NCBI RefSeq assembly: GCF_964204645.1
Contig: NC_134028.1
Span: 14,453,653-14,517,652, forward strand
Length of the DNA: 64,000 nucleotides
Direction of reading: 5' to 3'
Source: Tubulanus polymorphus
Taxonomy: Eukaryota > Animalia > Nemertea
This document shows, piece by piece, positions 1,261 to 33,044 of this stretch. Both the position numbers and the translations under genes were made by a program. The notes beneath the pieces were generated by a model, which was not told the origin of the DNA, ran no database searches, and was given only the letters and a program-made list of their open reading frames with translations. How positions within the stretch are numbered: position 1 is the stretch's first letter; the number at the start of each line of letters is the position of its first letter.

Positions 1261-4200
1261 TTAACACGTTAGGATTCTTTTCATTATCTCATTCTCTTTT
1301 GTTTCTTCTCTTTTAAATTTTAAATATTCATCTAAATTACAACCATAAGCAACTGTATAAATTCCATCATCTAAAATATATCTTTTATCATCAAATGGGT
1401 TTAGACTTATCTTTTCAATTTCTTCAATAAACATTTCATGATCTTCAGATCTTAAACATCGCATCTTATGTTTTCTAACTTCTTCATTGAATATACAATT
1501 GATGTAATCTTTGAAATGAATATTCTTTTCTACTACACTTTTGGTTATTCCTTTTAACTTTTTAGCTTCATGTTCTTTAGTTTTATATGAATACATTTTA
1601 GATCTAATACCGATGAATTCAATCATTTCTTCACTACCTAATTCATCTTTGAATTTACAAGGAACTTTTATTATCATTGCTAAACAATTCATGATCTTTA
1701 GGATAATTACTGAAATCAAAATGATGTTTTAATGTTTTTAAATCATCAGTTATGTTATCAGTTTTTATCTTTAATATGTAACCGTCGGTATCAAAATATA
1801 ATATTTCTATATGTTTTTCTCCAAAAAGTGGTTGTAATACATTATAATAGAATTCATACATTAGTAATTTTGATAATCATAAAACTGAAGCGCCAACATA
1901 GATTGGTTTATTAAATTTCATTGATGTTCTTCTCATCTTAACTGCAGCTAAATTTTCATCAAATATTCTGTTACCAATGAACTTAGGATATGATTGTAAA
2001 TACCTTATCCTTTTACCATTACTAACTAACTCAATATCATTTCTATTTCTAATATTTTCATCACAAGTCTTACCATAGAATGCATTATTCATTAACTTGA
2101 AGAAATCTTTCTCGAAATCAGTTTTAGCTTTAGTTCTCTGTTTGGTGTTAAAATCTATATATTTTTCTAACCACTTAGATTGGCTAAATGAAATATCTCT
2201 ATGTACTTTTTTTAGAACCATTCCCTGATTCAAATAAAACTTTAACATTCTATAATGTACTACATAATTATATTTATCTTCTTGAGTTACCATTAACTTT
2301 TCTGTATGAATATGATTTTCGGGTTTAATTCTTTTTTGGTAATTTGATAATTCTTCATGAGTTACAGTTTTATGTTCGGGACAGTAAGCTAGATTTCTAG
2401 ATTTAAATTTAATATGTTCAGGATATTCTAAATCTACAACAAAAAAATAACCAGTATCTGAATCATCTGCAATATCTAGAATTCTTTTCTTCCAATCAAA
2501 TTTATCATTATTTTCATTCTGTAAAACTTCAGTTAATTCAAATACTCCATAAGGATGTGGTTCCATCATTGCCCAACCATACAAATTATTTGCATCTATA
2601 TATAATAACTAATATCCAGGGTTATCATTTACATTGAAATATCTATCACCTAATACACCTGAAACTCCTCCTCTTATAGATTTTTCAAATGATAGTAATT
2701 GATCTATATTTGTTAACAAATCCATTTTTATATCTGTAAATTTTAAACCACAATCCCATGTTAATCCTGGACTTGAATAACAATGACAAGGATCAATTTG
2801 AAAATATTTTAGGTTTACATCTCTAAACCTTTCGAATATATCGGTTAATAATAATACATCTGATTTTAAATATAAATCTACTAATTGCCCATGATTTTCT
2901 ATTTTGAAATGATTCCAAATATTCAATGTTCTATTATAGACTTTATCTTTAACATATTCATTTTTTAATTCATCATAGAATTGTTCTTTCAATAATTCAG
3001 TTATATTGAAATCATTATGTGATTTATGAAATGAATATGGAATTGCTCCTTTATATCTCATTAATTGAAAATCATCATTATTTGGGTAGTGTTATTTTAA
3101 TGTTTTTAATTCATCATCAACTAATGATTTTGATAAGTTATCTAATGAACTATTTAAAAATCTATATGAATCTATAAATCTTAGGCAACCAAATTGGAAT
3201 GATATATAATTCTCAGATGTTTTAGCTAACATTCTAAATTTATAAGTTGGTATTTTATCTTATGATCTATTTGAATTTAATCTTTCTATTTCATTATTAA
3301 TTTCTTCTATTTTATGGCATAACTGTTTGATGAATAAATGTGCATCATACCCTGATAGATTATGAAATATAACTGGTACAAAATTAATTTTCTTAGCTTG
3401 TAAGTTACAATTCTCATGTGCAGCGCCTCTTAACTTTCCGTTCAAATGATCATGGTCTCTTACTTTTTTATCTCTAAAATTAAATATCTTTTCACAATAA
3501 TAACATTTATCTGCAAACTCAAATGCTTCTTTATCTTCTTCTGTCATTATAATTTCTATATTTGTATTCAATAATTTACTAAATCTTATTTCATATTCAA
3601 TTAATAAGTCACAAAAATGATTGATAACATTTTCATTTCTATAATGATAATATTCACTTTCAATTAGTTCTGGGTAATCAGATTTAATATATAACCCGAA
3701 AGCCGCAGCTGATTGATGAATCTTTTTAATAGTATTTGTTTTTGGTGGTTCTTCTGAAAAATCATTTTCATTAGAATTTAATTTCTTTCTTTTATAATAT
3801 ATTTCTTTTCTATCTTGATCAGTTAATTCTTTATTTAATGATTCAAAATCTCCATATATAACAAATGGAACTTTATTTTTGTAATCATATTTTTTGAATT
3901 CTAATATTTTATCCTTTTCATTTGGTAAAACTAATTTACAATAATCATGATTTTCACATAATTGTTTATGATTTAATAATGTACTTTCATTACTGAATTT
4001 ATGTAAACATTTTCTACATAGATATATCTTATTATGGTGATCACTTTCTGTTCTAAAGAATAAATCTATTTGTTTAATCCACATATAATGATTCTCATAA
4101 TATAATATATCTATAACATCGTTTGAATCATAATCTTTTGATAGGTATAAAGGTTCTAATGTATAATGTTTTATATTGTTACCTTTTGTATTTGGTAATT

Positions 4201-5305
4201 TGATTAAATCAAATAAATTCATCTTTATATTATTAACTCTTTCTATTTTTGGGATGTTTTTAATTATAACAGGATACTTATCTATCTTATAATTATTTTC
4301 AAATGGTTTATAATTTGTTAATCTATAAGTATGTTTATTATAATCTTCAAGTGGGTGTAAGCAACTTATTATAGCCCATAGAAAACATTTATCATCTTCA
4401 TTTTGTACATTTATAACAGCATTAGTTTTAAATGGTAGTTTAATATAACTCGATGCTTCAATATCTGGTTCTTTATAATATGATACTTTATTTTCATCAA
4501 TTGGTTTTGATTTAGTTAACTTATTATATTTTGTGCTATAAACATGTAAAGTCATAAATATTATTTCATCAAATATTAAACCAGATCCTTCAAAATATTT
4601 CTCTTCTATTTTAGTTTTTACTTCATTATAACATTTATCTAATTTATCATCTATATGTTGTTTATATATAATATGTTGTGAATGAGAATTTATATTATAT
4701 ATTGGTTTATCTTCAGATTTTATAAACTTTACTTTAACTGATATACTAATTTTAGGGTATTCAACATCAGTTATTATTTTTATAATATTTTTCATATTTT
4801 CTAAATGTTTTTTATTTTCTTCTAATGTTTTTCTTTTATGAAATTTAAACTCCATAGCTGCTGGACCAATATCACTTTTAAATGCTTCGGTTATCTCTAT
4901 ATCTTTTTTATTATCTTATGAATTAATATATTTACTTACATCTTCCATGTATTGTCTTTTATTGTTTAATTTATTTTTTATGCTTTTAATTGTCTTCTGT
5001 TTCTTAACATTATCTTTATCAAAATAATCTTCACCTAAAATAACATTATTCATATTTCTAATATGACTTTTAGATTTTAAATGTTCATTATAATATCTTT
5101 TATCACTGAATGATTGATTACATGTATCACATTTATATATTTCTTTTTCATTCATTAATTCATCTAATTTAGTTTCTAATATATCATCTTTATATTCTAG
5201 TTTCAATTTATTCTCTAAATGTGTTTTAGTTTTATTGTGTCTTGCTTTTTGGGATTTATCTATATTGATATTACATGTTGGGCAGTAGTACTTATTTGCT
5301 TCCAT
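1261..5305 (-). pseudogene. polB: Protein-primed family B DNA polymerase (pPolB) with N-terminal zinc fingers, vOTU-like and EndoVII-like domains; several stops/frameshifts
   Basis: Exo motifs YGDFES, FHNLSGYD, YLKSDV; KLMNNAFYGKT; YFDTDG (normally DTDS); INVQNEDDKCFLWAI; CYYC...VRDHDHLNGK.RGAAHENCN; split over ORFs 4916-5305, 3260-4855, 2609-3061, 1877-2584, 1655-1861, 1261-1719. Confidence 0.95.
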
Positions 5306-5535: not shown

Positions 5536-5801
5536 AGTAATAGGGGTAATAGGCTTTCAGGTTAAAGGTTGAACGGGCGGGTGAGTAAAAATGAAAAACA
5601 TGAAAATAATAACAATTTCTACTTGAATTAGGAGTGAAACTCATAAAAATGAAAAATAAATTCGAGCGTGTGAGAATTTATTTTTCATTTTTATGAGTTT
5701 CGCGAGTAATTCAAGTAGAAATTGTTATTATTTTCACGTTTTTCATTTTTACGAGCTCGACCGTTCGACCTTTGGCCTGAAAGCCTATTACCCCTATTAC
5801 T
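5536..5801. repeat. Terminal fold-back palindrome of E1 (266 bp, type A)
   Basis: AGTAATAGGGGTAATAGGCTTTCAGG at 5536 pairs with CCTGAAAGCCTATTACCCCTATTACT ending 5801; apex AATTCGAGCGTGTGAGAATT. Confidence 0.95.
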
Positions 5802-12471: not shown

Positions 12472-12740
12472 AGTAATAGGGAATATCTTGTTTCATACCA
12501 AAGGTCGAAAGGTCGAGCTCACAAAAAATGAAAAATATGAAAATAATAACAATTTCTATTTGAATTAGTAGCGAAACTCATATAAAATGAAAAATAATTC
12601 TCGCACACTCGAATTTATTTTTCATTTTATATGAGTTTCACTCCTAATTCAAATAGAAATTATTATTATTTTCATATTTTTCATTTTTTACTCACTAGCC
12701 CTTTCAACCTTTGATATGAAACAAGATATTCCCTATTACT
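12472..12740. repeat. Left terminal palindrome of E2 (269 bp, type A)
   Basis: AGTAATAGGGAATATCTTGTTTCATA ... TATGAAACAAGATATTCCCTATTACT. Confidence 0.95.
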
Positions 12741-12819
12741 CTTAAAATATTCATATTTATGAATAAAATATAAATGAATAACTTCTAAAATCAATTTTAA
12801 TAAAAAATTTAGTATTAAA

Positions 12820-13047
12820 ATGGAAGCAAATAAGTACTACTGTCCAACATGTAATATCAATATAGATAAATCCCAAAAAGCAAGACACAATAAAACTAAA
12901 ACACATTTAGAGAATAAATTGAAACTAGAATATTTACAGTTATATTCAGAACAGTTAACAAAGGCAAAGAAATTTATTGAATTATGGAATAATGATCCAA
13001 ATAATGAACAATACGTTGAGGAATTTGATATCAAGGATATGATTTAG
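12820..13047 (+). CDS. Small chimeric ORF: TIR-encoded C2H2 zinc finger fused to HNH-like C-terminal tail
   Basis: First 38 codons identical to PolB N-terminus (MEANKYYCPTC...H...H..EY); tail ELWNNDPNNEQYVEEFDIKD matches the end of HNH ORF 32251-32925. Confidence 0.6.
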   Translation: MEANKYYCPTCNINIDKSQKARHNKTKTHLENKLKLEYLQLYSEQLTKAKKFIELWNNDPNNEQYVEEFDIKDMI

Positions 13048-13296
13048 ATATTTCATGTCGGTTGTTTCTATTTACATAATTATATATTCATTATGTAAAT
13101 AAAATTATGATTAACGCATGCGCATTAAGCAAAAGCGCGCCTGAATGCGCGGTTTTACCCAGTGGTATGATTTAGATATAAAGGAATCGAAACGACTTAT
13201 CAAAAGCAGCGAGGAATGAAAAAGGATGACGTTGGTCGAAGAAATGGAAGAGGATTCTAAAATATTAACCAATTTAGTAAAAAATATGCATAATAA

Positions 13297-13950
13297 ATGG
13301 AATCAGAACAACCACAAACTATCAATATTACAAATAACACTGGTGTTATAAATATATACTACAAGAAGTGTTCTAAGTGTGAATTAGATAAATTAGCTTT
13401 AACAGAATTTAGTAAGCGTAAGATTAGCAAAGATGGTTTTCAATATTGCAGTAAAACTTGTTTTAAACTATATACCAAACAATATAGAGAAGATAATAGA
13501 GAAGCTTATAATGATTATATGACAGAATATATGAGAGAAAGATATCAAACAGATCTTAATTTTAGATTGAAACAATGTTTAAGGACTAGATTAACACAAT
13601 TATTCAACAAAGAAACGCATTCAGAAACACTATCTAATCTATTGGGTTGTTCAGATGAATTTTTCAAATCATGGATAATATATCAATTCGATGATAAAAT
13701 GAATATAGATAATTATGGTGAATACTTTCATATTGATCACGTGTTGCCGATTTCTAAATTTGACATGAGTGATGATTATAATAAGAAGCTAATATGGAGC
13801 TGGAAAAATTTAAGACCTTTAGAAAAGAAGGAAAACATAATTAAATCTAACAAACTAGATATGAAATTATATTTAGATCAACTGGATAAAGCAAAGACAT
13901 TTGTTGAATTATGGAATTCAACACATAATGAAAAATACGTTGAATATTAA
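13297..13950 (+). CDS. HNH endonuclease-like protein with N-terminal Cys motif
   Basis: KKCSKC...FS...DG.QY.CKTC N-terminus; HIDHVLP...W.NLRPL...N..KSNK HNH core. Confidence 0.8.
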   Translation: MESEQPQTINITNNTGVINIYYKKCSKCELDKLALTEFSKRKISKDGFQYCSKTCFKLYTKQYREDNREAYNDYMTEYMRERYQTDLNFRLKQCLRTRLTQLFNKETHSETLSNLLGCSDEFFKSWIIYQFDDKMNIDNYGEYFHIDHVLPISKFDMSDDYNKKLIWSWKNLRPLEKKENIIKSNKLDMKLYLDQLDKAKTFVELWNSTHNEKYVEY

Positions 13951-15107
13951 ACGCTTAGAAAACCGGTTACTCTCGATCTATGTCAAACCGCCTGTATGTA
14001 ATTATATTAGGTTGTTTACAAAAACATCTGTGCCGCATTTCATATTCAGTTGAATAGGGCGCACCTCATTTGAATATTGATCGAACGTGCTATTTCAGTT
14101 GAAAAGGATTAATCAATTATATTACAAAAGAAGGAACATCTGTTGCACCAGACGGTGTTTAGCTAGTGAATAACTGGCAGTTATAAACGCGCAGCACATA
14201 AGCATAGGAACGTATAGGATATTCTCTCTATAAACACAATTTTAGGAGTTCACAGTTATAAATGTAAGTACTGTTTTTGTTGTTATTAAGGCGTTGGGAA
14301 ACGTTAAACATGTAAAACTTATCCTGGTAAGATGCGCCACAAATGGTCATGTTTAAGTGTTGTAATTAATATTTTACAACTACAACTTCAAGTTAGTTAT
14401 ATTCTACGCTAGATATTTATCTTTTAGATAACAAAATGAAGACCATTGAATCAAGAAAGTGAAGATAGATGGATGTGGAATCAGAAATTATGGATATTTC
14501 AACTCATGAGACTGTAGCAGTTTAGCCATACTGTATAGGCTTTCAATGCATTACGTTTGTCGGAATGTCAATTGCGTCATTAAGCTGTTGTTAATGTCAC
14601 ACAGTGACAGATGTTGTATTGTACTTTATTGATTCCTGCATTCCACGCATAACTTAACGCTCCTCTCAGGAGCGGCTTGGAATGTGGAAATCGATAATGA
14701 TTGTAGAATAAAATATATATGTGTTTATGAAATAGTATTTCCACCAGTCGTTTCTTTGAATTTATTTTCAGTTTTAGGATTTATTATCAAGAATCCGAAA
14801 TGACTTATCTGGACAGTTATAATTACTGCTCCTATAGATAAACAATAGTAGTGAGATAATCTAAATCCTAATTTAAATAAAATATAATAAAAAAACAATA
14901 ACTTCATCTAGCTAGTGAATTCTATTATATTTTTAATACTTTCTTTTCAAAAAGAGAATACTTTATATTTTGAATAGATTCAAATAGAAATTCTTTAAGT
15001 TCAAATAGCTAGTATCAGTAGTCAATACTAGAATTCTTTAACTTTAACTATCTAGTATCATTTTATAATACTTATAATATTTTTCTTATTGAATTTCTCT
15101 AATATAA

Positions 15108-15715
15108 ATGTCAAAGAAATCTAATAAGAATAGTATTGATATTGAAAAAACATTAGATGATTTGGGTATAAATGATAATAAAGATACAGTTGTTTCTAAT
15201 TCTTTTCAAGTTAATAACAATATAGATTATGAATACTATTTATATTGTAAGCATCATATAGAACTATTGATTGCCGGTGGAAAAACTAAGGAGTTTTAAA
15301 ATAGAATCATTACTTTTCAAGAACTAGACTCTATGAAACCAGATAAAGTAATAAAATATTTTAAGATTTATGAAGAAGCTAGATTAGCTAGAATAAATGA
15401 TTCTATTTCAGATGGTATTGTCAAATGTTATTCTAAGTTATGTCCCAGTTAATACCAATTGATGACGAAAATAAATTATATAGTGATTTGAAAAATGACT
15501 ATTTAGTTATGACTGAATTACAAAAATGGGTTGGATATGCTTCATTTCAATTAGGATCGGTTATGACATTAATTTCTACTGGTGTCATAACATTTTCGAA
15601 TATCAAACCTATGGAATATAAATCAGGTAAGAACGAAACAGATGACGCTGTACTACAACCAAACGTCGAAACAGAAAATGAATCAGAACAAAAATTAACT
15701 AAGATAAATGAGTGA
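15108..15715 (+). pseudogene. Conserved hypothetical Polinton protein (~200 aa), frameshifted
   Basis: Homologous to 31368-31970 and 49965-50567. Confidence 0.7.
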
Positions 15716-16077
15716 TGGAGTTAAGAAAAAAGGCTAGATCTGAAAAACAAATTAAATGGGCAAGAGAATTAGGTAAAAGATCTTCAGAATTATAACAAGC
15801 TAAGAAAAAGAAATTAACTGTTATAAATGAATCACAGACTTTATCTGATATTGATTCAAATAACAATCCATCTAATTCTTCAAATGCTGGAAGTAATTAT
15901 AAATTATATATTACAATTGGATTAGTAACAGTTATTATATTATCTGGTGTAATATATAAATCAAAATTCAAATCTGATTATAACAATAATGATTCCAATG
16001 ACAATAAACCTATCATACCAAATAAGTCAAATCATAAAGTCATTGAAACTAAATCTAAATTATTATTAATGGATTAA
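15708..16077 (+). pseudogene. Basic N-terminus single-TM protein (MSDGVKKKARSEKQ...), frameshifted
   Basis: Homologous to intact 31004-31375 and 50560-50931. Confidence 0.7.
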
Positions 16078-16083
16078 AATAAG

Positions 16084-17175
16084 ATGAAAAAAGAACAATA
16101 TTTAAGAGATTTATATTATAACCCAGAAAGTGAAGTATCATATTCTAACGTTTCAGAATTATGGAATAAAATTAAATCTGATAATGAAAATGGTGATATA
16201 AAATATAGTGAATTAAAATCATGGTTACAAAATCAACCAACATATCAAATCCACAAGAAAATGGATAAAACTTATTTAACAAGAAAAGTTATGGTTTCAT
16301 ATATCGATCAACAATGGCAAGCAGATTTAATTGACATGAAGAACTTAGAAGAACACAACAAAGGATATTTCTGGATGCTGAATGTTATAGACATATTCAG
16401 TAGATACGCATGGTCAATTCCAATCAAAAATTAAACTGGTAAAGAAGTAACAAATGCTTTTAAATCAATATTTAAAGAAGCTATTCCAGATAAGATACAA
16501 TTTGATGAAGGTAAGGAATTCTATAACAAACATTTTAAAAAACTATTATCTGATAACGATGTAGAATATTTTTCAACACACTCAGATAAAAAAGCATCTA
16601 TTATAGAAAGATTTAATAAAACATTGAAATCTAGAATGTGGAAATATTTTACTGCTAATGAAACATACAAATATATCGATGTGTTAGATGATTTAGTGAA
16701 AGGTTATAATAATTCTAAACATAGTTCTATAAATATGAAACCAATACAAGCTAGAAAAGAAGATAATTCAGAAATAGTATGGAATAATTTATATGGAGCG
16801 TTTGTTACACATGATTTTGGAGAACCTAAATTTAAAATAGGACAACACGTAAGAATATCTAAATATAGAAAAACATTTTATAAAGGTTATACCCCTAATT
16901 TTACAGAAGAAATATTTAAAATTAAAAAGATAATATTAACTTAACCTTTTCTTTATAAACTAGAAGATCTAAAAGATGAAGAAATATTAGATTATTTCTA
17001 TGAACAAGAATTATCACTTGTGCCAAATCCAGAAGAAATAGAATATAAAATAGAAAAAGTATTGAAAACAAAAACTCTTAAAGGAAAAAAGTATTCTTTG
17101 GTGAAATATAAAGGATATGATGATAAATTTAATGAATGGATTTTATCTAGTAAAATTAAAAGAATAAATGAATAA
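16084..17175 (+). pseudogene. int: Retroviral-like (rve) integrase with C-terminal chromodomain; in-frame stops
   Basis: QQWQADLIDM, IQFDEGKEF, KASIIERFNKTLK (DDE); YKIEKVL...YSLVKYKGYDDKFNEWI chromodomain. Confidence 0.93.
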
Positions 17176-17774
17176 ATGAATAAAGATTTATTTATATTTG
17201 AACCGCATAATATGTTAGTTACTGGAGTAACCAATTGTGGTAAAACACATTTCATATTAGATTTGTTAGAAACTATTTATAAGAATCATATTGATAATAT
17301 AATATTATTCTGCCCTACTTATGAAATGAATAAAACATATGATAGGGATATAGTTAAGATGAAAAAGTTTATTATATTAAATCCTAAAACAATAAAAGAA
17401 AATTTAGATAATTGTATAAAAATAGCATTTACATGAATACATTATTCATTGTAGATGATTGCGCAAATTTACATGATTCAAAAGTGAGAGAAAGTGAGTT
17501 ATGTTATCTAGCTTTCTCTGGAAGACATTTCGGGATAACAACATGGGTTTTAAATCAAAAATATAATTCAATTGTTAAAGACTTTAGGGAGAATATAAGA
17601 TTTCTAGTTTTATTTTATAACAAAGATAAAAAATCTATGCAACAATCATTGGAAGAAAATCAAATTATACCTACTGAATTACATGATGAATATATGAATA
17701 AATTAAAGAATAATAAAGGTTCAAAATGATTACTGAGACTACAATTTCCCTATGAATATAAGTTTATAAAATAA
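17176..17774 (+). pseudogene. A32/FtsK-like packaging ATPase, internal deletion
   Basis: Walker A GVTNCGKT, Walker B IVDD, SGRHFGIT..LNQ. Confidence 0.9.
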
Positions 17775-17789
17775 CTATTTATATATCTA

Positions 17790-18350
17790 TCTATATAATA
17801 CGTATTAAATACGTATTAGATACGTATTAAATACATTAATACTTAAAACCCCATTTTTAAAATAATATATTATTCATATAATTTTCAACCAATTTATTTT
17901 TATTTTTTTCAACTAATATATGAATAAGTTTAAAGAATAATAAAGGTTCAAAATTATTACTGAGACTACAATTTCCCTATGAATATAAGTTTATAAAATA
18001 ACTATTTATATATCTATCTATCTAATACGTATTAAATACGTATTAAATACATTAATACTTAAAACCCCATTTTTAAAATAATATATTATTCATATAATTT
18101 TCAACCAATTTATTTTTATTTTTTTCAACTAATATATGAATAAGTTTGAAAATAATAAAGGTTATTTATTATTACTGAGGTTTCAATATAAATTTAAAAA
18201 AGAAATATAATTTAATGTATTTTCAAATAATATGTATTAAATACATATTAGATACGTATTAGATATGTATTAGATATGTATTAAATACGTATTAGATACC
18301 TTAATACTTAAAACCCCCTTTTTTATTTACTATTATTTTTTACAATTTTC
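17790..18350. terminator. Convergent intergenic zone with 11-bp TAATACGTATTA-type repeats; local ~225 bp duplication
   Basis: Lies between converging + and - gene blocks; equivalent zones at 20372-20740 and 29155-29282; terminator role inferred. Confidence 0.4.
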
Positions 18351-18358
18351 AACCTTTA

Positions 18359-19228
18359 TTACTTTTTGAGTGTTAGATAATCACTTTCTGAATCACTTTC
18401 ACTATCAGACCCTAACAATTTATTCAAATGCTCTACCGTATCTTCATAAATAATTGGTTTATTGATATACTTATTAGTCGTCTCAACTATATCTTTATTT
18501 TCTGATTTAAGTTTCATAGAATCTTTATTATCAATGCGCTTTCCTGTATTTTCATTATTATCTTTATTAGTGTTTGCTCCTAATATTTCATTTACAATGT
18601 TTGATTCTAATTTAATAGCATCGGTTAAATCTAATTCATCTTTATTAGGCGTTGCTAATAATAAATCTTTATATAATTCTTTACCATTTACTTTTTGATT
18701 TGAAACAAACTTTGTAACATATCTAAATGGGTGTTCTATAAATTCTCTTAAACCAACACGTTTTAAAACATTAGTAATATGTGAATTTGTATTCATATGA
18801 TTATTCCAATTTGATGGAGCGTTTGAAAATTCACCTTTACAATAATCACAATAATTTCTATTTTCACTAACATTTAATATTATTGCATTATTAGATGTAG
18901 AAGGTATTACATTATTAGATGTAGAAGGTATTGCATTATTAGATGTAGAAGGTATTACATTATTAGATCTAGAAGGTATTACATTATTAGATGTAGAAGG
19001 TATTACATTATTAGATATAGAAGGTATTACATTATTATCAATTACATTACTTAAATTATCAACAACTTCACTTTTATTATTATCGATTTCTATTAGTTTA
19101 GTTTTATAAATTTTGAAAAAAGGATCAAATATCAAAGCTATATTACAAGGTATTACATAATATAAACCATCATTATTTCCATGTGTATCGATGTATGGAA
19201 TATGTTTATATACTTTACCTCCTTCCAT
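18359..19228 (-). CDS. Hypothetical protein with (PSTSNNVI)n repeats and C2H2 zinc finger
   Basis: 24-bp tandem repeat ~18885-19050; CDYC...NWNNHMNTNSH. Confidence 0.75.
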   Translation of the reverse strand: MEGGKVYKHIPYIDTHGNNDGLYYVIPCNIALIFDPFFKIYKTKLIEIDNNKSEVVDNLSNVIDNNVIPSISNNVIPSTSNNVIPSRSNNVIPSTSNNAIPSTSNNVIPSTSNNAIILNVSENRNYCDYCKGEFSNAPSNWNNHMNTNSHITNVLKRVGLREFIEHPFRYVTKFVSNQKVNGKELYKDLLLATPNKDELDLTDAIKLESNIVNEILGANTNKDNNENTGKRIDNKDSMKLKSENKDIVETTNKYINKPIIYEDTVEHLNKLLGSDSESDSESDYLTLKK

Positions 19229-19260
19229 TTATTATATAAATTTTTATTAAAGTTAAAATT

Positions 19261-19535
19261 TTAATACATAACACTATTCAATTGAGAATTTACAATATTT
19301 AATTGCGCGTCAGATATAATATAAATGTGCATTTTGAAATTTTTGATTCCTTTATTCTTTGTCATGAATAATTGTATTCCATCTTTAGTGTTTTGTAATT
19401 TTTCTTCCAGAGCCATGTAATGAATTATCCTCTGTTGTTCTAAAATCTAACCATAATGCATATTTATTACCGGTATAATAATCAATTTGATCAATATTAC
19501 AATTTTCAGATGATTTTACTTTTTCATTCATAAAA
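19261..19535 (-). pseudogene. Major capsid protein 3' fragment (duplicated segment)
   Basis: Near-identical to 35039-35312. Confidence 0.8.
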
Positions 19536-19759
19536 ATAATATTTATGACTTTACATGTTTATAGCACAAAATATAAGTCTATGGTTAGATTTTAGAACAA
19601 CAGAGGATAATTCATTACATGGCTCTGGAATAGAATACAAAATAGAAAAAGTATTGAAAACAAAAACTCTTAAAGGAAAAAAGTATTCTTTGGTGAAATA
19701 TAAAGGATATGATGATAAATTTAATGAATGGATTTTATCTAGTAAAATTAAAAGAATAA

Positions 19760-20371
19760 ATGAATAAAGATTTATTTATATTTGAACCGCATAATATGTT
19801 AATAACTGGAGTAACCAATTGTGGTAAAACACATTTCATATTAGATTTGTTAGAAACTATTTATAAGAATCATTTTGATAATATAATATTATTCTGTCCT
19901 ACTTATGAAATGAATAAAACATATAATAGAGATATGGTTAAGATGAAAAAGTTTATTATATTAAATCCTAAAACAGTAAAAGAAAATTTAGATAATTGTA
20001 TAAAAATAGCAATTGATACTTATAAAGGATCAAATACATTATGCATTGTAGATGATTGCGCAAATTTACATGATTCAAAAGTTAGAGAAAGTGAGTTATG
20101 TTATCTAGCTTTCTCTGGGAGACATTTTGGGATAACAACATGGGTTTTAAATCAAAAATATAATTCAATTGTTAAAGACTTTAGGGAGAATATAAGATTT
20201 CTAGTTTTATTTTATAATAAAGATAGAAAATCTATGCAACAATCATTGGAAGAAAATCAAATTATACCTACTGAATTACATGATGAATATATGAATAAAT
20301 TAAAGAATAATAAAGGTTCAAAATTATTACTGAGATTACAATTTCCATATGAATATAAATTTATAAAATAA
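19760..20371 (+). CDS. A32/FtsK-like packaging ATPase, intact second copy
   Basis: GVTNCGKT, CIVDD, SGRH; preceded by chromodomain-coding end of integrase (19631-19767). Confidence 0.9.
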   Translation: MNKDLFIFEPHNMLITGVTNCGKTHFILDLLETIYKNHFDNIILFCPTYEMNKTYNRDMVKMKKFIILNPKTVKENLDNCIKIAIDTYKGSNTLCIVDDCANLHDSKVRESELCYLAFSGRHFGITTWVLNQKYNSIVKDFRENIRFLVLFYNKDRKSMQQSLEENQIIPTELHDEYMNKLKNNKGSKLLLRLQFPYEYKFIK

Positions 20372-20743
20372 CTATTTGTATACCTATGTATTAGATATCC
20401 TATTAGATACCCTAATACCTAATACCCCACTAGATACCCTAATACCTGATACCCTAATACCTGATACCCTATTAGATACCTTAAATACTTAAAACCCCCT
20501 TTTTTAAAATAAATATTATTTATACAATTTTCAACCAATTTATTTTCATTTTTTCAACTAATATATGAATAAGTTTGAAAATAATAAAGGTTATTTATTA
20601 TTACTGAGGTTTCAATATAAATTTAAAAAGAAATATAATTTAAGGTATTTTCAAATAATATGTATTAGATATGTATTAGATACCTTAAATACTTAAAACC
20701 CCCTTTTTTATTTACTATTATTTTATACAATTTTCAACCTGTA

Positions 20744-21458
20744 TTACTTCTTGAGTGTTAGATAATTACTTTCTGAATCACTTTCATCATCACTCTCCAA
20801 TTCACTATCATACCCCATCAATTTTTTCAAATTCTCTACCGAATTTTCTTCTTTAAATTCTTTATTATTTTTGTACTTATTCTTCACCCTTTTTACTGTA
20901 TCTTCATAAATAATTGGTTTATTGATATACTTATTAGTCATCTCAACTATATCTTTATTTTCTGATTTAAGTTTCATAGAATCTTTATTATCAATGCGCT
21001 TTCCTGTATTTTCATTATTATCTTTATTAGTGTTTGCTCCTAATATTTCATTTACAGTGTTTGATCCTAATATTTCATTAGCATCAGTTAAATCTAATTC
21101 ATCTTTATTGGGTGTTGCTAATAAAAAATCTTCATATAATTCTTTACCATTTACTTTTTTATTTGAAACAAATTTGGTAACATATCTAAATGGGTGTTCT
21201 ATAAATTCTCTTAAACCAACACGTTCTATTACATTAGTAATATGTGAATTTGTATTCATATGTTTATTCCAATTTGATGGAGCGTTTGAAAATTCACCTT
21301 TACAATAATCACAATAATTTCTATTTTCACTTACATTTAATATTATTGCATTATTATATGTAGAAGGTATTACATTATTTGATGTAGAGGGTATTACATT
21401 ATTAGATGTAGTAGGTATTACATTATTAGATGTAGTAGGTATTACATTATTAGATGTA
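20744..21458 (-). pseudogene. 3' part of repeat/zinc-finger gene split by E3 insertion
   Basis: Homologous to 18359-19228; 5' part resumes at 34813-35006. Confidence 0.85.
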
Positions 21459-21862
21459 AGTAATAGGGGTAATGGGCTTTCAGGCCAAAGGTCGAACGGT
21501 CGAGCTCATTAAAAAACAAAACATTAAAAGTAATTAAAAACTATAATATATTTTCAAAACCGTGTGCATTTTATATTAAAACTAATTATTTATTCTAAGA
21601 TATCAATAATCTAAAAAGCATATTGTATTAAATCAATTGGTCGCTCCACTTCGCTACCGCTCCGCTCCGCGACCAATTGATTTATTTACAATACACAAAT
21701 TCATATAATCAAATATATTTTAATAATAATAATTATTCTATTATTCAACTGAAATACACACGGTTATGAAAATATATTATAGTTTTAAATTACTTTTAAT
21801 ATTTGTTATTAATGAACTCGACCATTCAACCTTTAACTTGAAAGCCCATTACCCCTATTACT
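21459..21862. repeat. Terminal palindrome of E3 (404 bp, type B)
   Basis: AGTAATAGGGGTAATGGGCTTTCA ... TGAAAGCCCATTACCCCTATTACT; apical stem AATCAATTGGTCGC/GCGACCAATTGATT. Confidence 0.95.
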
Positions 21863-21942
21863 CTTAAAATATTCATATAAATGAATAACATTTAAATCAT
21901 TGAACTTCTAAAATCAATTTTAATAAAAAATTTAGTATTAAA

Positions 21943-24900
21943 ATGGAAGCAAATAAGTACTACTGTCCAACATGTAATATCAATATAGATAAATCCCAAA
22001 AAGCAAGACACAATAAAACTAAAACACATTCAGAGAATAAATTGAAAATAGAATATAAAGATGATATATTAGAAACTAAATTAGAAGAATTAAAGAATGA
22101 AAAAGAAACATACACATGTGATACATGTAATCAATCATTCAGTGATAAAAGATATTATAAAGAACATTAAAAATCTAAAAGTCATATAAGAAATAAGAAT
22201 AATGATATTTTAGGTGAAGATTATTTTGATGAAGATAATGATAAGAAACCGAAGACAATTAAAAGCATAAAAAATAAATTAAACAATAAAAGACCATACA
22301 TGGAAGATGTAAGAAATTATATTAATTCATTAGATAATAAAAAAGATATAGAGATAACCGAAGCATTTAAAAGTGATATTGGCCCAGCAGCTATCGAGTT
22401 TAAATTTCATAAAGGAAAAACATTAGAAGAAAATAAAAAACATTTGGGAAAATATGAAAGAAATAATAAAAATAATAACTGATGTTGAATATCCTAAAAT
22501 TAGTATATCAGTTAAAGTCAAATTCATAAAATCTGAAGATAAACCAATATATAATATAAATTCTCATTCACAACATATTATATCTAAACAACATATAGAT
22601 GATAGATTAGATAAATGTTATAATGAAGTAAAAACTAAAATAGAAGAGAAATATTTTGAAGGATCTGGTTTAATATTTGATGAAATAATATTTATGACTT
22701 TACATGTTTATAACACAAAATATAATAAGTTAACTAAATCAAAACCAATAGATGAAAATAATGTATCATATTATAAAGAACCAGATATTGAAGCATCGAG
22801 TTATATTAAACTACCATTTAAAACTAATGCTGTAATAAATGTACAAAATGAAGATGATAAATGTTTTCTATGGGCTATAATAAGTTGTTTACACCCAGTT
22901 GAAGATTATAATAAACATACTTATAGATTAACAAATTATAAACTATTTGAAAATAATTATAAGATAGATAAGTATCCTGTTATAATTAAAGACATCCCAA
23001 AAATAGAAAGAGATAATAATTTAAGAATAAATGTATTTGATTTAATCAAATTACCAAATACAAAAGGTAACAACATAAAACATTATACATTAGAACCTTT
23101 ATATCTATCAAAAGATTATGATTCAAATGGTGTTATAGATATATTATATTATGAGAATCATTATATGTGGATTAAACAAATAGATTTATTTTTTAAATCA
23201 GAAAATGATCACCATAAAATATATCTTTGTAGAAAATGTTTACATAGATTCAGTAATGAAAGTACATTATTAAATCATAAACAATTATGTGAAAATCATG
23301 AGTTATTGTAAATTAGTTTTACCAAATGAAAAAGATAAAATATTAGAATTCAAAAAATATGATTACAAAAATAAAGTACCATTTGTAATATATGGAGATT
23401 TTGAATCATTAAATAAAGAATTAACTGATCAAGATAAAAAAGAAATATATTATAAAAGAAAGAAATTAAATTCTAATGAAAATGATTTTTCTGAAGAACC
23501 ACCAAAAACAAATACTATTAAAAAGATTCATCAATCAGCTGCAGCTTTCGGGTTATACATTAAATCTGATTACCCAGAACTAATTGAAAGTGAATATTAT
23601 AATTATAGAAATGAAAATGTTATCAATCATTTTTGTGACTTATTAATTGAATATGAAATAAGATTTAGTAAATTATTGAATACATATATAGAAATTATAA
23701 TGACAGAAAAAGATAAAGAAGAATTTGTGTTTGCAGGTAAATGTTATTATTGTGAAAAGATATTTAATTATAAAGATAAAAAAGTAAGAGATCATGACCA
23801 TTTGAATGGTAAATTTAGAGGTGCAGCGCATGAGGCTTGCAATTTACAAGCCAAAAAAGTAAATTTTGTCCCCATTATATTTCACAATTTATCGGGGTAT
23901 GATGCACATTTATTCATCAAACAGTTATGCCATAAAATAGAAGAAATCAATAATGAAATAGAAAGATTAAATTCAAATAGATCAAAAGATAAAATACCAA
24001 CTTATAAATTTAGAATGTTAGCTAAAACATCTGAGAATTATATATCATTCCAATTTGGTTGCCTAAGATTTATAGATTCATATAGATTTTTAAATAGTTC
24101 ATTAGATAACTTATCAAAATCATTAGTTGATGATGAATTAAAGATATTCAAAGAAAATGACCCAAATAATGATGATTTTCAATTAATGAGATATAAAGGA
24201 GCAATTCCATATTCTTTCTATAAAAATCATAATGATTTTAACATAACTGAATTATTAAAAGAACAATTCTATGATGAATTAAAAAATGAATATGTTAAAG
24301 ATGAAGTATATAATAGAACATTGAATATTTGGAATCATTTCAAAATAGAAAATCATGGGCAATTAGTAGATTTATATTTAAAATCAGATGTATTATTATT
24401 AACCGATAAGAAAGAATTCTAGATATTGCAGATGATTCAGATACTGGTTACTTCTTTGTTGTAGACTTAGAATATCCTGAACATATTAAATTTAAATCTA
24501 GAAATCTAGCTTACTGTCCCGAACATAAAACTGTAACTCATGAAGAATTATCAAGTTATCAAAAAAGAATTAAACCCGAAAATCATATTCATACAGAAAA
24601 GTTAATGGTAACTCAAGAAGATAAATATAATTATGTAGTACATTATAGAATGTTAAAGTTTTATCTAAATCAAGGAATGGTTCTAAAAAAAGTACATAGA
24701 TATATTTCATTTAGTCAATCTAAGTGGTTAGAAAAATATATAGATTTTAACACCAAACAGAGAACTAAAGCTAAAACTGATTTCGAGAAAGATTTCTTCA
24801 AGTTAATGAATAATGCATTCTATGGTAAGACTTGTGAAAATATTAGAAATAGAAATGATATTGAGTTAGTTAGTAATGGTAAAAGGATAAGGCATTAACA

Positions 24901-25643
24901 ATCATATCCTAAGTTCATTGGTAACAGAATATTTGATGAAAATTTAGCCGCAGTTAAAATGAGAAGAACTTCTATGAAATTTAATAAACCAATCTATGTT
25001 GGCGCTTCAGTTTTAGAATTATCAAAATTACTAATGTATGAATTCTATTATAATGTATTACAACCACTTTTTGGAGAAAAACATATAGAAATATTATATT
25101 TTGATACCGATTCTTACATATTAAAGATAAAAACTGATAACATAACAGATGATTTAAAAACATTAAAACATCATTTTGATTTTAGTAATTATCCTAAAAA
25201 TCATGAATTGTTTAGCAATGATAATATAAAAGTTCCCGGTAAATTCAAAGATGAATTAGGTGGTGAAGAAATGATTGAATTCATTGGTATTAGATCTAAA
25301 ATGTATTCATATAAAACTAAAGCTCATGAAGCTAAAAAGTTAAAAGGAATAACCAAAAGTGTAGTAGAAAAGAATATTCATTTCAAAGATTATATCAATT
25401 GTATATTCAATGAAGAAGTTAGAAAACATAAGATGAGATGTTTAAGATCTGAAGATCATGAAATGTTTATTGAAGAAATTGAAAAGATAAGTCTAAACCC
25501 ATTTGATGATAAAAGATATATTTTAGATGATGGAATTTGGAATTCATACGGTTGCTTATGGTTGTAATTTAGATGAATACTTAAAATTTAAAAGAGAAGA
25601 AAAAAAAGAGAACGAGATAATGAAAAGAATTCTAACGTGTTAA
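21943..25643 (+). pseudogene. polB: pPolB, fragmented; ~350 bp deletion at ~24409 removes DANNLY motif
   Basis: Same motifs as 1261-5305; YFDTDS present in 24959-25567. Confidence 0.95.
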
Positions 25644-25672
25644 TCAAATTTTAATAAAAATATGTTATTAAA

Positions 25673-25970
25673 ATGGAGAGTAAACAAGCACACAGTGAGA
25701 ACAACAAATTATTTCTAGATAGAATTAAAGATATAACAAATGTAAAATCTGTAGATTATAAATTCAAAAAGTTAACAGAATTAACAATCCATAAGAAATA
25801 TCTAATTACAAATATTGATACAGTTACTAATAACTATGGAGATAAATTAGTTATACACTTAGAATATGAAGGATTAAAAGGAAATACATATAAATTCAGA
25901 ACATATTTACCGGATAGATTTCATAGATTATCAAGTGAAGATTTAGAAGAATTATGTTCTGGAGATTTCT
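25673..25970 (+). pseudogene. Small OB-like protein gene truncated by LINE insertion
   Basis: Matches 41451-41804 up to LCSGDF, then diverges. Confidence 0.8.
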
Positions 25971-26316
25971 TCGATATCCAACTTCAAAATTCAGCTTCAG
26001 CGTTATCTTCGTTCCACTTATTAATTATCTGTGTAATCTTTTATAACGTGCCACATTACTTTATCTGCAATTGTCTATGTATATTATGTATATTTGGTTT
26101 GTTTGGTAAACTAGGAATGAATGTGAATTGGTGTATATGTCTGTGTGTATGTGAGAGTGTATGGACGAGGGATTAGGACTAGATTAAGCCAACTTTGGCT
26201 TCTCCTAATTCCTCGCATAATTTATTGGTACATTGTTTTCCATATATTGTGTATTCATTTGTAAACTCTGTAACAATCTTTTATGCAAATAAATAAATCA
26301 TCAATCATCATAAATC
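25971..26316 (+). mobile_element. 5'-truncated LINE (CR1/L2-like) 3' end
   Basis: Encodes SISNFKIQLQRYLRSTY* (resembles ORF2 C-terminus), followed by 3' UTR, AATAAA and (ATCA)n-like tail. Confidence 0.65.
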
Positions 26317-27641
26317 AATTTAGCATTTTCATGGGATTTATTATCATCATTTAGTTTAATTATATCATGTTGAATAACACCGTGTGGGTGCCATACGGCA
26401 CCATTATCAGTTCTTATATCACCGTGTGGGTGCCGTACGGCACTATCTTCTGATGTATTGTAATCTTTTATTTTAGAATCATTATTTAATTTAATATTAT
26501 TAGTTTAAGTTTCTGTTGATTGAATATGTTTTTTAATTTTTTCACCTTCCATTAATTTTGGAGCAGTAATAATCTTTTTATTTATATCATTTAACCCAAA
26601 TGAATTATTTATTGTTGCAGTTTTAATTAGATTATTATAACCAATTATGTTTCCCATCTTTAATACTAAATCATTAGAAATAATTAATAGATTAGGGCCT
26701 AAACAATAATTTAATCTAATATGTGATTTATCTAAATAATTTTGATATCTTATAATGTTTTCTGGAATCGATCTATTTTTATCATTATGAATGGAATCTT
26801 CAAATAATACTTTGAATTGTTTCTGCGCATCGAATGAAGTGTTATCATTTCCAATTATTGGTGATCTTGTTTCAACTTGCGCACCTAGAATACATATCAA
26901 ATAAGTTCTAATAGATTGATTTATTCTTTGTATTCCAGCTTTAGTAAAACCTTCACTATTTTCTAAAATGAAATTAACCCAACCATTATTGTTTTGTTGT
27001 TGTATATTATTATAATATTTTGGTAATTCATTCCAATTTAGTGTTCTAATATCTGAATTTGTCATTATTTTTCCAAATTCTTTAGTATATAATATTCCTA
27101 ATCCACCCATTGTTCCAATTTTTGCTCTAAAATCTTTATTTGAATTAATATTAAATTCATTACATATTTTATAAAACTTAGAAAAATTAATATTATTATT
27201 CAATTCTTTAAAATATTTTGAACCTGGTAAAGGACATTCTAATTCATCTAATATTAATTTTATTTGAAAATAAGTATGAAATCTAAAAAGTGATAACATC
27301 AATGGTAAACTTGGTTTGTTTAAATGATCATTCCAACTAATTCCACATCCTGTTGTTGCACAATAAACAGCAAAATTCAATTGGTTCTGCCAATACTTCA
27401 TATTAGATTTTAATAACCATTGTTTTGCCTCATTTAAATTTTTGAAATTAATTGTATACACATGAAATATATTTTCCATCTTTGCATTAAAATTATTAGT
27501 TTCAGTAACATAAATTTCTAAATTAGTTAATGAATCTAAAACTTTATTTCTTTATGTAATATCTTTATTAAAATCTATTGCTGGAATATTATATTTAATT
27601 GATTTATTATATTGGAAAGCTTTTGGAAAACTATCTGCCAT
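26317..27641 (-). pseudogene. Conserved Polinton hypothetical protein (WQNQLNFAVYCATTGCG), C-terminal TM lost
   Basis: ORF 26505-27479; homologous to 37790-39169. Confidence 0.75.
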
Positions 27642-27657
27642 TTATATAATTAAAAAA

Positions 27658-28092
27658 TTAATAATTTATTAATTCTTTTAATAATTTATCTTGTTCTTCA
27701 ACTGTTATATGTCCATTTAAACTTATGATATAATCTAGTGTATTCTTTAATTTATTAATTTCTTTTATATTAGTTTTAATTTTTTCTTTATTACTTTTTA
27801 TATTTAATTTTGAACTTATACCGGTTAAAACACTTGAACTTAATCCTAACACACCAATTGATATAGCTAAAGGTGTTAATGGACTGAATATTGCTAAAAA
27901 TGTTATTACAGAACTAATTGTAACCGAACCACTTATAATCAAATAATATATAATTTTAGATTTTAGATATTTTTTCTTTTTTATCTTTAAGTCACTTTCA
28001 AATTCTAATATTTGTTTTTCTAAATATATTTTTAATTTAGTTTTATTTATATCATGAGGAATAATATCAATATTATCAACTTTATCTTCCAT
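27658..28092 (-). CDS. Coiled-coil two-TM small protein
   Basis: Hydrophobic hairpin IIYYLIISG...GVLGLSSSVLTGI; homolog at 39186-39620. Confidence 0.7.
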   Translation of the reverse strand: MEDKVDNIDIIPHDINKTKLKIYLEKQILEFESDLKIKKKKYLKSKIIYYLIISGSVTISSVITFLAIFSPLTPLAISIGVLGLSSSVLTGISSKLNIKSNKEKIKTNIKEINKLKNTLDYIISLNGHITVEEQDKLLKELINY

Positions 28093-28111
28093 TTATTTAG
28101 CAAAAAAATTA

Positions 28112-28534
28112 CTAATTAGTAAACTTATAAGCAACAAATATAACAACAACAGTTCCGCCTAAAATCCAAATTATTTCATATTTCTGTTGTTCTTTACTTG
28201 GGGTATAATAATCTGATAATTTAGGTTTGTATAGATGTAATTTTTCTTTATTGGTTACCGCGTTATATAAACTCATTGCATCATCAACTGTTTGAAAATC
28301 TCTATGTGCAATCTTCTGATCATATAATTCTTTGTTAATATAATCCATATAGTTTTGCCTCTTTTCTCTATATTCTTCTGCTGCTTTATTATATTTCTCT
28401 AATGCTAAGTTATGTCTTCTTTGTTCTCCTAATGAACTATTTTTATCAATATGCTTAAATAAATATCCACCTCCAGTAAATGCTAAAGCGTTAACAATTG
28501 CCGATCCTATAATAGTTATAATTGCAGAAGCCAT
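28112..28534 (-). CDS. Small protein with amphipathic N-terminus, coiled coil and C-terminal TM
   Basis: MASAIITIIGSAIVNALAFTGG...RRHNLALE; homolog at 39641-40063. Confidence 0.7.
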   Translation of the reverse strand: MASAIITIIGSAIVNALAFTGGGYLFKHIDKNSSLGEQRRHNLALEKYNKAAEEYREKRQNYMDYINKELYDQKIAHRDFQTVDDAMSLYNAVTNKEKLHLYKPKLSDYYTPSKEQQKYEIIWILGGTVVVIFVAYKFTN

Positions 28535-28558
28535 TTATTTAGCAAAAAAATTATGCAT

Positions 28559-28780
28559 TTATATGGGAGGAATATATTTTTGTTTTTCCAAATAATCAAT
28601 AGTTAAATTAGATAAAGTAACTGCTAACGTTAATTTTAAAGTATCATTTATATCAAATCTATCATCATTAACACTTCCCATTTTGAATACTTTTTTTAAT
28701 ACCATTGAATAACCAACAGTTCCAACTGATAGTAATGCGCCATTATATAATCCAGTTATTATCCACTTATTATCACTCAT
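28559..28780 (-). CDS. 73 aa hydrophobic protein
   Basis: Conserved with 40088-40309. Confidence 0.65.
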   Translation of the reverse strand: MSDNKWIITGLYNGALLSVGTVGYSMVLKKVFKMGSVNDDRFDINDTLKLTLAVTLSNLTIDYLEKQKYIPPI

Positions 28781-29137
28781 TTATTTATCAAAAAAATTAC
28801 TATCATCAAAATATTTAGTTATCTTATTTATGATTATTTCAACATTTATTTCATTACTAGTTTCATTTGTATATATTTCAATTATTATTTTTTTAATATC
28901 ATCGATGATAAAATCTTCATCTAATTCATAAAATCTTAAAGATTCTCTAATTAAATTAGTAATCTTTTCTACATTTAAAGTTTCTTTATCTATTGTTTTT
29001 TCAAACTCAAATGTTGTTTCATTAGAAAATGTGATATTTTTGATATGTGTAATTACATCATTAACGTTAAATTTCATTTCTTTCTCAAGTTTAAAATCAA
29101 ATCCAAAACATATACTCGGTCCAACAGTTATATTCAT
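28781..29137 (-). CDS. 118 aa acidic hypothetical protein
   Basis: Conserved with 40317-40667. Confidence 0.65.
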   Translation of the reverse strand: MNITVGPSICFGFDFKLEKEMKFNVNDVITHIKNITFSNETTFEFEKTIDKETLNVEKITNLIRESLRFYELDEDFIIDDIKKIIIEIYTNETSNEINVEIIINKITKYFDDSNFFDK

Positions 29138-29282
29138 TTATATAGTGAAAAAAATAAAAATAAATTGGTTGAAAATTATATGAATAATATTTATTTTAAA
29201 AAAAGGAGGTTTTAAGTATTAAATACATTAATACGTATTTAATACGTATTTAATACGTATTAGATAGATAGATATATAAATT

Positions 29283-29894
29283 TTATTTTATAAATTTATA
29301 TTCATAGGGAAATTGTAGTCTCAGTAATAATTTTGAACCTTTATTATTCTTTATTTTATTCATGTATTCATCATGTAATTCAGTAGGTATAATTTGATTT
29401 TCTTCCAATGATTGTTGCATAGATTTTTTATCTTTGTTATAAAATAAAACTAGAAATCTAATGTTTTCTCTAAAGTCTTTAACAATTGAATTATATTTTT
29501 GATTTAAAACCCAAGTTGTTATCCCGAAATGTCTCCCAGAGAAAGCTAAATAACATAACTCACTTTCTCTCACTTTTGAATCATGTAAATTTGCGCAATC
29601 ATCTATAATAAATAATGTATTTGATCCTTTATAAGTATCAATTGCTATTTTTATACAATTATCTAAATTTTCTTTCACTGTTTTAGGATCTAATATAATA
29701 AACTTTTTCATCTTAACTATATCTCTATTATATGTTTTATTCATTTCATAAGTAGGACAGAATAATATTATATTATCAAAATGATTCTTATAAATAGTTT
29801 CTAACAAGTCTAATATGAAATGTGTTTTACCACAATTGGTTACTCCAGTAACTAAAATATTATGCGGTTCAAATATAAATAAATCTTTATTCAT
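29283..29894 (-). CDS. A32/FtsK-like packaging ATPase, intact
   Basis: GVTNCGKT, FIIDD, SGRH. Confidence 0.9.
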   Translation of the reverse strand: MNKDLFIFEPHNILVTGVTNCGKTHFILDLLETIYKNHFDNIILFCPTYEMNKTYNRDIVKMKKFIILDPKTVKENLDNCIKIAIDTYKGSNTLFIIDDCANLHDSKVRESELCYLAFSGRHFGITTWVLNQKYNSIVKDFRENIRFLVLFYNKDKKSMQQSLEENQIIPTELHDEYMNKIKNNKGSKLLLRLQFPYEYKFIK

Positions 29895-30997: not shown

Positions 30998-31003
30998 CTT
31001 CTT

Positions 31004-31375
31004 TTAATCCATTAATAATAATTTAGATTTAGTTTCAATGGCTTTATGATTTGACTTATTTTCTGGTATAATATGTTTCCGATTGTCATTGGAATCATAT
31101 TTATCATCAGATTTGAATTTTGATTTATATATTACGCCGGATAATATAATAATTGTGATTAACCCAATTGTAATATATAAGTAATTATTTCTTCCACTAT
31201 TAGAAGAATAAGATGGATTATCATTCGAATCAATATGAGATAATTTCTGTGATTCATTTATATCAGTTAATTTCTTTTTCTTAGCTTTTTTTAATTCTGA
31301 AGATCTTTTACCTAATTCTCTTGCCCATTTAATTTGTTTCTCGGATCTAGCCTTTTTCTTAACTCCATCACTCAT
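31004..31375 (-). CDS. Basic N-terminus single-TM protein
   Basis: 123 aa; TM YITIGLITIIILSGVIY. Confidence 0.7.
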   Translation of the reverse strand: MSDGVKKKARSEKQIKWARELGKRSSELKKAKKKKLTDINESQKLSHIDSNDNPSYSSNSGRNNYLYITIGLITIIILSGVIYKSKFKSDDKYDSNDNRKHIIPENKSNHKAIETKSKLLLMD

Positions 31376-32925: not shown

Positions 32926-33044
32926 TTATTATACGTATTTTTTTACTAAATTTGTTAATAATTTTAGAATCCTTCTCCATTTCTTCGACCAACGTCATCC
33001 TTTTTCATTCCTCGCCGCTTTTGATAAGTTGTTTCGATTCCTTG

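Follow-up and report, generated by a model that had tools for sequence, protein, structure and literature searches.

Long terminal palindromes of fixed polarity and strand-biased pairing in a clade of Polintons from Tubulanus polymorphus

The window, a stretch of 64,000 nucleotides from the nemertean Tubulanus polymorphus, was resolved by self-comparison into four elements, A, B, C and D (Table 1). C is nested in B, and A and D are partial: A ends at 5801 and continues beyond the window edge, and D starts at 46936 and loses homology to the other copies near 52391. The terminal inverted repeats (TIRs) and 6-bp target-site duplications (TSDs) of B and C agree with the Polinton pattern of long TIRs and a TSD of 5–8 bp. 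The duplication flanking C is the weaker of the two, as its hexamer recurs in the surrounding 24-bp tandem array. Each TIR consists of a palindrome followed by approximately 190 bp of interior sequence. The beginning of polB lies inside the TIR (12829–12933, 34214–34318 and 47428–47529), so that a short copy of it is also found at the opposite end of the element. Within B, a duplication (17037–19009 and 19629–21458) includes the 24-bp coding tandem array into which C was inserted, and an inverted duplication of about 250 bp with 75% identity, in capsid-gene-like sequence, occupies a rearrangement junction at 19391–19642. Altogether, at least five copies of one family, one of them inside another, form a local cluster within 55 kb (1–54400).

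Table 1. Elements, terminal palindromes and genes located in the window
Feature	Coordinates	Strand	Basis or details
polB of element A, broken by stops and a frameshift	1264..5305	-	tblastn with P0001
Endonuclease VII-like insert in PolB, motif intact	3398..3544	-	PF02945, E 4.5e-5
OTU-like protease domain predicted in PolB, with Cys and His	4061..4438	-	Z 7.3 to viral OTUs; both residues in 54/54
Terminal-protein domain predicted in PolB, with a little-finger-like fold; Ser in Ser-Gly loop, helix 2/strand 4	4538..4852	-	predicted structure, alignment
Terminal palindrome of element A, short type, 266 bp; terminus at 5801	5536..5801	-	exact motifs, folding; orientation by homology to other ends
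Element B	12472..45867	.	TIRs 463 bp (98%); TSD ATTGCT at 12466-12471 and 45868-45873; carries nested C
Left terminal palindrome of B, short type, 269 bp	12472..12740	+	motif, arm alignment, reads
Interior part of TIR, ~190 bp, common to all ends, including first ~34 codons of polB	12741..12933	+	self-comparison, homology
ORF adjoining the non-polB end	13297..13950	+	copies 32251-32925, 49012-49686; no Pfam match
A32-like packaging ATPase	19760..20371	+	PF04665, E 3.5e-12; more copies 29283-29894, 51871-52422
Element C, nested in B	21459..34812	.	TIRs 599 bp (99%); TSD GATGTA at 21453-21458 and 34813-34818
Left terminal palindrome of C, long type, 404 bp	21459..21862	+	motif, arm alignment
rve integrase and chromodomain, element C	29887..30726	-	PF00665 (E 9e-8), PF00385
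Right terminal palindrome of C, 405 bp	34408..34812	-	motif, arm alignment
Probable double jelly-roll major capsid gene, two ORFs (first one searched)	35039..36284	-	feature search, no Pfam match
Right terminal palindrome of B, 268 bp	45600..45867	-	motif, arm alignment
Terminal palindrome of element D, long type, 400 bp	46936..47335	+	motif, self-comparison, arm alignment
Seventh end, decayed: shortened palindrome, inner-type arm, outer tip lost, same polarity	~54280..54390	-	

The elements are Polintons. They share with the Polinton/Maverick elements (Polintoviricetes) an rve integrase, an A32 ATPase, long TIRs, AGT...ACT ends and 6-bp TSDs, and with the divergent OTU-PolB class of these elements ('Beta' in PMC8502044) a PolB with predicted terminal-protein and OTU domains. 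The assignment to the Beta class is suggested solely by the absence of a PF03175 match in the two polymerase-domain pieces scanned. A jelly-roll capsid, probable here, may be another common feature; the gene is a lead, and its feature scores of 0.96–0.98 refer to clusters in which a minority of the members carry Capsid_N, DJR-like or Sputnik MCP families. The ORF adjoining the non-polB end contains what we take, by eye, to be an HNH-like motif. The Pfam scan covered 17 ORFs of the window, and no Rep-type (HUH) nickase family was matched among them. A search for an Ulp1-like protease with one distant query yielded no credible match, which is a weak test on decayed element copies.

Every polB copy in the window is interrupted. 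A structural model of the N-terminal PolB stretch (mean pLDDT 75.6) contained a four-strand, two-helix domain, resembling the little finger of Y-family polymerases (Pol eta, Z = 8.9), and an OTU fold (Z = 7.3), both Z scores being modest. According to passages of PMC11071308, such a little-finger-like fold is the terminal-protein domain, and its linking Ser or Tyr stands next to a Gly between helix 2 and strand 4. The window PolB has Ser-Gly at this position; the Ser is present in 53 of the 54 aligned proteins, and the Cys and His of the OTU domain in all 54. The polymerase part matched phi29 polymerase best (E = 3.5e-9), and a sequence search of solved structures with the N-terminal alignment returned two weak zinc-finger matches and nothing more. 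PolB thus appears to retain a predicted terminal-protein module, i.e., a capacity for protein priming. The endonuclease VII-like insert was considered as a partner specific to the palindromes and was rejected in this role, as it is carried by 11 of the 11 loci checked with or without a palindrome, including two where none was seen (L004 and L022). PMC11071308 reads it, in the part available, as a homing-endonuclease relic.

The 10-mer AGTAATAGGG was found exactly at positions 5536, 12472, 21459, 34408, 45600 and 46936, and its reverse complement, CCCTATTACT, ending exactly at 5801, 12740, 21862, 34812, 45867 and 47335. Neither has a further exact copy in the window, which leaves six occurrences of each. 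The ends bounded by these motifs are palindromes of 266–405 bp, as the first-pass annotation had described; all are imperfect, and they belong to the four elements. Arm alignments yielded Watson–Crick pairs in 116/133, 118/135, 158/213, 159/215, 120/136 and 159/210 columns for the six ends in coordinate order. At all six, the outermost 26 bp pair at 25–26 of 26 positions. The short type (approximately 268 bp, in A and B) and the long type (approximately 403 bp, in C and D) have only the first 50 bp or so of each arm in common. Folding of end 5536–5801, the one end out of six for which a shuffle control was calculated, gave –115.8 kcal/mol, compared with an average of –22.3 for 200 shuffles (z = –27), none of which folded as well. 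An Rfam search across 5000–48000 gave no match. The annotation had listed six intact ends, all of which we recovered; a seventh, decayed end is also present. Its statement that the TSDs place the whole palindrome inside the element held for four of the six ends (those of B and C) and not for A and D, whose partner ends lie outside the window.

Raw reads were taken from a public run (X4) of a study separate from that of the other three runs, and 12 in 100 of the run was read. The depth was 2.4–3.9 on the flank (12300–12469), 1,046–2,170 over the palindrome and 1,685–2,032 on the interior repeat. From this depth, the genome contains roughly several hundred such ends. At position 12472, 491 reads left the palindrome into unrelated flanks (agreement 0.37), indicating a true element terminus at this position. 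Approximately 900 reads spanned the inner junction at 5535/5536. Since the depth of the palindrome did not exceed that of the interior, there is no large population of solo palindromes; nor did any solo palindrome with its own TSD occur in the window. The somewhat lower depth over the palindrome may stem from ends that diverge from the B-type reference, or from a share of ends that lack the palindrome. The annotation had allowed for an assembly artefact, recognizable by palindromes missing from the raw reads; several hundred palindrome-type ends in reads of a separate study speak against it. The palindromes are a real, family-wide and conserved trait of a Polinton clade.

These counts also speak against the weakest explanation, that the palindromes are separate miniature inverted-repeat elements sitting at the ends or an assembly artefact, which is highly improbable: each palindrome does resemble a small element with inverted ends, but no TSD flanks a single palindrome, the TSDs bound B and C as wholes, the palindromes are no deeper in the reads than the interior repeat, and the reads leaving at 12472 and those crossing the inner junction are as described above.

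The two arms are distinguishable, and the outer/inner arm polarity was identical at 6 of 6 ends, with C in the outer and T in the inner arm at tip positions 27 and 35 of every element. For a flip-flop test, reads were aligned, with a 94% cut-off, to a segment of A made up of 96 bp from the interior and 50 bp from the adjoining inner arm. The outer-arm letter adjoined the interior in 53 of 753 reads at position 27, in 30 of 751 at position 28 and in 19 of 699 at position 35. As a flipped arm would show the outer letter at every one of these positions, the raw ceiling is 2.7%. The cut-off drops some reads with three extra mismatches, but the depth falls by just about 9% over positions 27–34, and no pile of loose ends appeared at position 26 among the rows listed; a flipped share of 50% is thereby excluded. 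We rejected a flip-flop of the kind described for AAV ITRs, which exist as independent flip and flop forms (available text of PMC11575299), and classical AAV-type hairpin transfer is consequently disfavored. Some bocaparvovirus termini have a single form and are nevertheless thought to replicate by a rolling hairpin (passages of PMC8242256), so fixed polarity does not exclude all forms of self-priming.

Comparison of the elements revealed concerted change of the arms. Positions 11–19 vary among A, B, C and D, and within each element the two arms match one another there. Of the 129 columns compared between A and B, 96 were constant, 15 had changed in both arms together, 8 retained an identical mismatch and 10 had changed in some other way. 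The wobble sites 27 and 35 persist in all four elements, and site 27 also in the close relative L024, with the neighboring positions homogenized. The mismatches are strand-biased. Pooled over the six ends, whose copies are not independent, transition mismatches fell as G·T 55 times on the 3'-terminal strand and 5 times on the other. When distinct sites were counted and the count was confined to the well-paired stems (bases 1–128 in A and B, 1–112 in C and D, leaving out the poorly paired middle of the long type and adding position 19 of B's right end), 12 of 15 placed G·T on the 3'-end strand (12 vs. 3, p = 0.035); these counts are small, the copies are related to one another, and four of the 12 (sites 45–51) lie in a bubble of uncertain alignment. 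All eight sites common to at least two elements had this orientation (p = 0.008). At six of six ends, the 3'-end strand folded better than the other strand, by 8.6–12.5 kcal/mol. Deamination of single strands could be the source of the bias, and it would likewise imply a single-stranded 3'-end strand. The suggestion of the first-pass annotation that a single strand folds its own 3' end is favored by the G·T bias, the concerted arms and the (nearly) perfect terminal 26 bp.

Relatives were collected as 116 loci with PolB alignments. Three close ones have a visible polB-side end (L024, L025 and L028), and two of them carry palindromes. L024, 86% identical in the searched part of PolB, has a full palindrome of 257 bp starting with AGTAAT; its wobbles number 7 on the 3'-end strand and 1 on the other, and its two strands fold equally (–69.5 vs. 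–69.4 kcal/mol). L025 (82%) starts within the palindrome and keeps the center and the inner-type arm. In L028 (64% over the whole PolB), the AGT terminus and, in register with it, the subterminal repeat motif are present at 158–205, and the fold-back is absent (z = –1.0); its end is either a deleted copy or a pre-palindrome state.

The annotation had left two options side by side, a local duplex origin and a self-priming 3'-OH. These are not equal, because AAV-type transfer is disfavored by the lack of flip-flop and a predicted terminal-protein module is kept. The reading that we tentatively prefer, with a probability of roughly 40%, is that the 3' end of a displaced strand folds locally and that terminal-protein priming copies the palindrome in place. 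It starts from the identical arm polarity at both ends, the joint evolution of the arms outside the fixed wobble sites, and a PolB predicted to combine a terminal-protein, an OTU and a phi29-like polymerase domain. Once displaced or excised, a single strand would fold at both tips sooner than its ends could meet across 13–20 kb. Terminal-protein priming on the folded 3' tip would then open the hairpin and regenerate the whole palindrome in its original orientation. Of the subterminal GGTCGA repeat motif, the inner copy is degenerate, and presumably only the outer end would be recognized in duplex DNA, while the G·T pairs may maintain the fold. Terminal-protein priming on a local fold is the simplest cycle that fits the fixed polarity, the folding of the 3' strand and the intact terminal-protein module, and it requires no nuclease step. 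Streptomyces telomeres offer a precedent, with terminal-protein priming on a folded 3' end described in passages of PMC4513846.

Several points weigh against this local-fold, protein-primed cycle. All the data come from integrated DNA or ordinary genomic reads, in which no free or snap-back form was seen. The folded end has a 5' overhang, and phi29 origins with such an overhang are markedly weaker, as reported in the available part of PMC4150772. Competition from self-priming is to be expected, since a paired 3'-OH that lies flush with its template can act as a normal primer. Pairing of the two ends with each other is thermodynamically favored over a pair of local hairpins (–296 vs. –204 and –457 vs. 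–222 kcal/mol), and thus the local fold would win only kinetically. The strands of L024 fold equally, though its wobbles lean the same way, and L028 keeps the subterminal motif without a fold-back.

Self-priming with asymmetric resolution is the main rival, albeit a somewhat doubtful one. Here, the folded 3'-OH would start the second strand, the closed end would be opened asymmetrically at the outer boundary marked by the intact outer motif, and the terminal protein would act at open ends only or patch the palindrome afterwards. The geometry and the contrast of intact and degenerate motifs fit this scheme: the 3'-OH is flush with the template, with the terminal 26 bp paired as given above, and the G·T bias lies on the 3'-end strand. 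Candidate nucleases would be the endonuclease VII-like insert and the HNH-like ORF recognized by eye. The single-form parvovirus termini mentioned above are compatible with it, a Streptomyces telomere underwent fold-back extension in vitro (passages of PMC4513846), and the same model was proposed for protist virophages in the available section of bioRxiv 10.64898/2026.07.28.741278. On the other hand, the lack of flip-flop excludes plain hairpin transfer, so that hypothetical extra steps would be needed; outer-type arms joined to the interior, as expected of inverted dimers, make up at most a few percent of the reads; the 17 scanned ORFs include no Rep-type nickase family; and the endonuclease VII-like insert also occurs in L004 and L022. 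A hybrid cycle, which we rate as rather doubtful, would combine the two: the 3' fold-back primes, the motif asymmetry guides a nuclease or integrase cut, and the terminal protein rebuilds the palindrome. A single element would thereby unite hairpin priming of the parvovirus type with protein priming of the adenovirus type, a combination absent from the literature searched.

It is unlikely that the palindrome arose once by fold-back copying and has since been carried passively or merely shields a single-stranded tip, with template switching keeping the arms alike and strand-biased C-to-T change producing the wobbles. The terminal motif of L028, in register and without an inner arm, agrees with such an origin, as do the variable length and center of the palindromes (257–405 bp) and the location of several wobbles at CpG sites. 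Among the 34 loci with at least 400 bases upstream of polB, a long palindrome lies just there in 2 (L024 and the distant L114). Two weaker matches (L008 and L011) were rejected as end palindromes, being arrays of short repeats. The absence from distant loci is weak evidence, as the true ends of most distant contigs are not established. Moreover, neutral CpG decay would yield both strand orientations, and the wobble sites 27 and 35 were kept through four elements while their neighbors were homogenized.

A further scheme, which is quite unlikely, has the chromosomal palindrome extruding as a cruciform whose base is cleaved by the endonuclease VII-like domain or the integrase, so that the element is released with hairpins at its two ends. 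Cruciforms are substrates of T4 endonuclease VII, the insert has an intact motif, and if the cut followed one diagonal, the element would keep the hairpin of the better-paired 3' strand. However, extrusion requires both strands to fold, and on the other strand the wobble sites are C·A mismatches; the insert is also common in relatives without a visible palindrome, and PMC11071308 reads it as a relic.

The replication of Polintons is itself still a model, comprising excision, end-to-end pairing and protein priming, and direct evidence for the panhandle is described as lacking even for PRD1 and adenovirus (PMC11886824). The present elements differ from other Polinton/Maverick elements in that the outer 266–405 bp of each TIR is itself a palindrome. 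Neither 'hairpin' nor 'palindrom-' is used in the main text of the preprint on nematode Polintons (10.1101/2023.08.22.554363) or of the paper on adintoviruses (PMC8502044), and the available passages of PMC11296320 and PMC6431247 contain nothing on Polinton end palindromes. A full-text literature search, with Repbase reports outside its range, located one direct precedent, the virophage preprint cited above. Its available section describes palindromes inside the terminal repeats, beside the TSD, in endogenous virophage subtypes 1, 2, 5 and 6 as well as PLV subtype 4 of Halocafeteria seosinensis, proposes hairpin priming, and associates the palindromes preferentially with non-pPolB replication genes. 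The mechanism that the first-pass annotation called unusual for a Polinton is consequently not wholly new, having been proposed there for virophages and one Polinton-like virus subtype. The palindrome given as an example there measures 52 nt, and most of the carriers are non-pPolB, whereas the present ones measure 266–405 bp and sit on a pPolB element with a terminal-protein module; the section covered says nothing of polarity or wobble bias. With hairpin-ended relatives already in that preprint, our results add palindromes on a pPolB element with a terminal-protein module, the lack of flip-flop and the strand-biased wobbles. Terminal palindromes are thus not confined to elements that have lost the protein-primed polymerase.

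Parvovirus hairpins (AAV ITRs and those of some bocaparvoviruses) are likewise imperfect terminal palindromes able to place a 3'-OH on their own template, and predicted folding indicates that the present ends can pair their 3' end in the AAV manner. The ends described here differ from AAV ITRs in lacking flip-flop, and their carrier is an integrated element of 13–20 kb with its own polymerase and with no Rep nickase among the ORFs scanned. At Streptomyces telomeres, where Tap and Tpg patch the ends, a folded 3' end of approximately 300 nt is the template for terminal-protein-primed synthesis (PMC4513846, same passages). This is an analogy only, since those telomeres have several short hairpins, belong to a bacterial replicon with an internal origin and employ unrelated proteins, whereas the present ends form one long fold-back. 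A high-copy family with strand-biased hairpin ends of fixed orientation provides a short, defined substrate for comparing protein priming with self-priming.

Searches beyond the close relatives were carried out in several ways. Viral contigs gave no match in an end-motif search or in a single-protein locus search, and a stricter end pattern found none in 97 loci; the pattern was too strict, as L028 has the motif by eye. L114, with 29% PolB identity, contains a 184-bp palindrome (4657–4840) between divergently oriented genes, approximately 140 bp before the polB start, which may represent an internal origin or a place where two ends are joined. Two related viral contigs contain internal arrays of perfect palindromes of 24 bp (L015, 11572–11934, and L016, 5705–6067).
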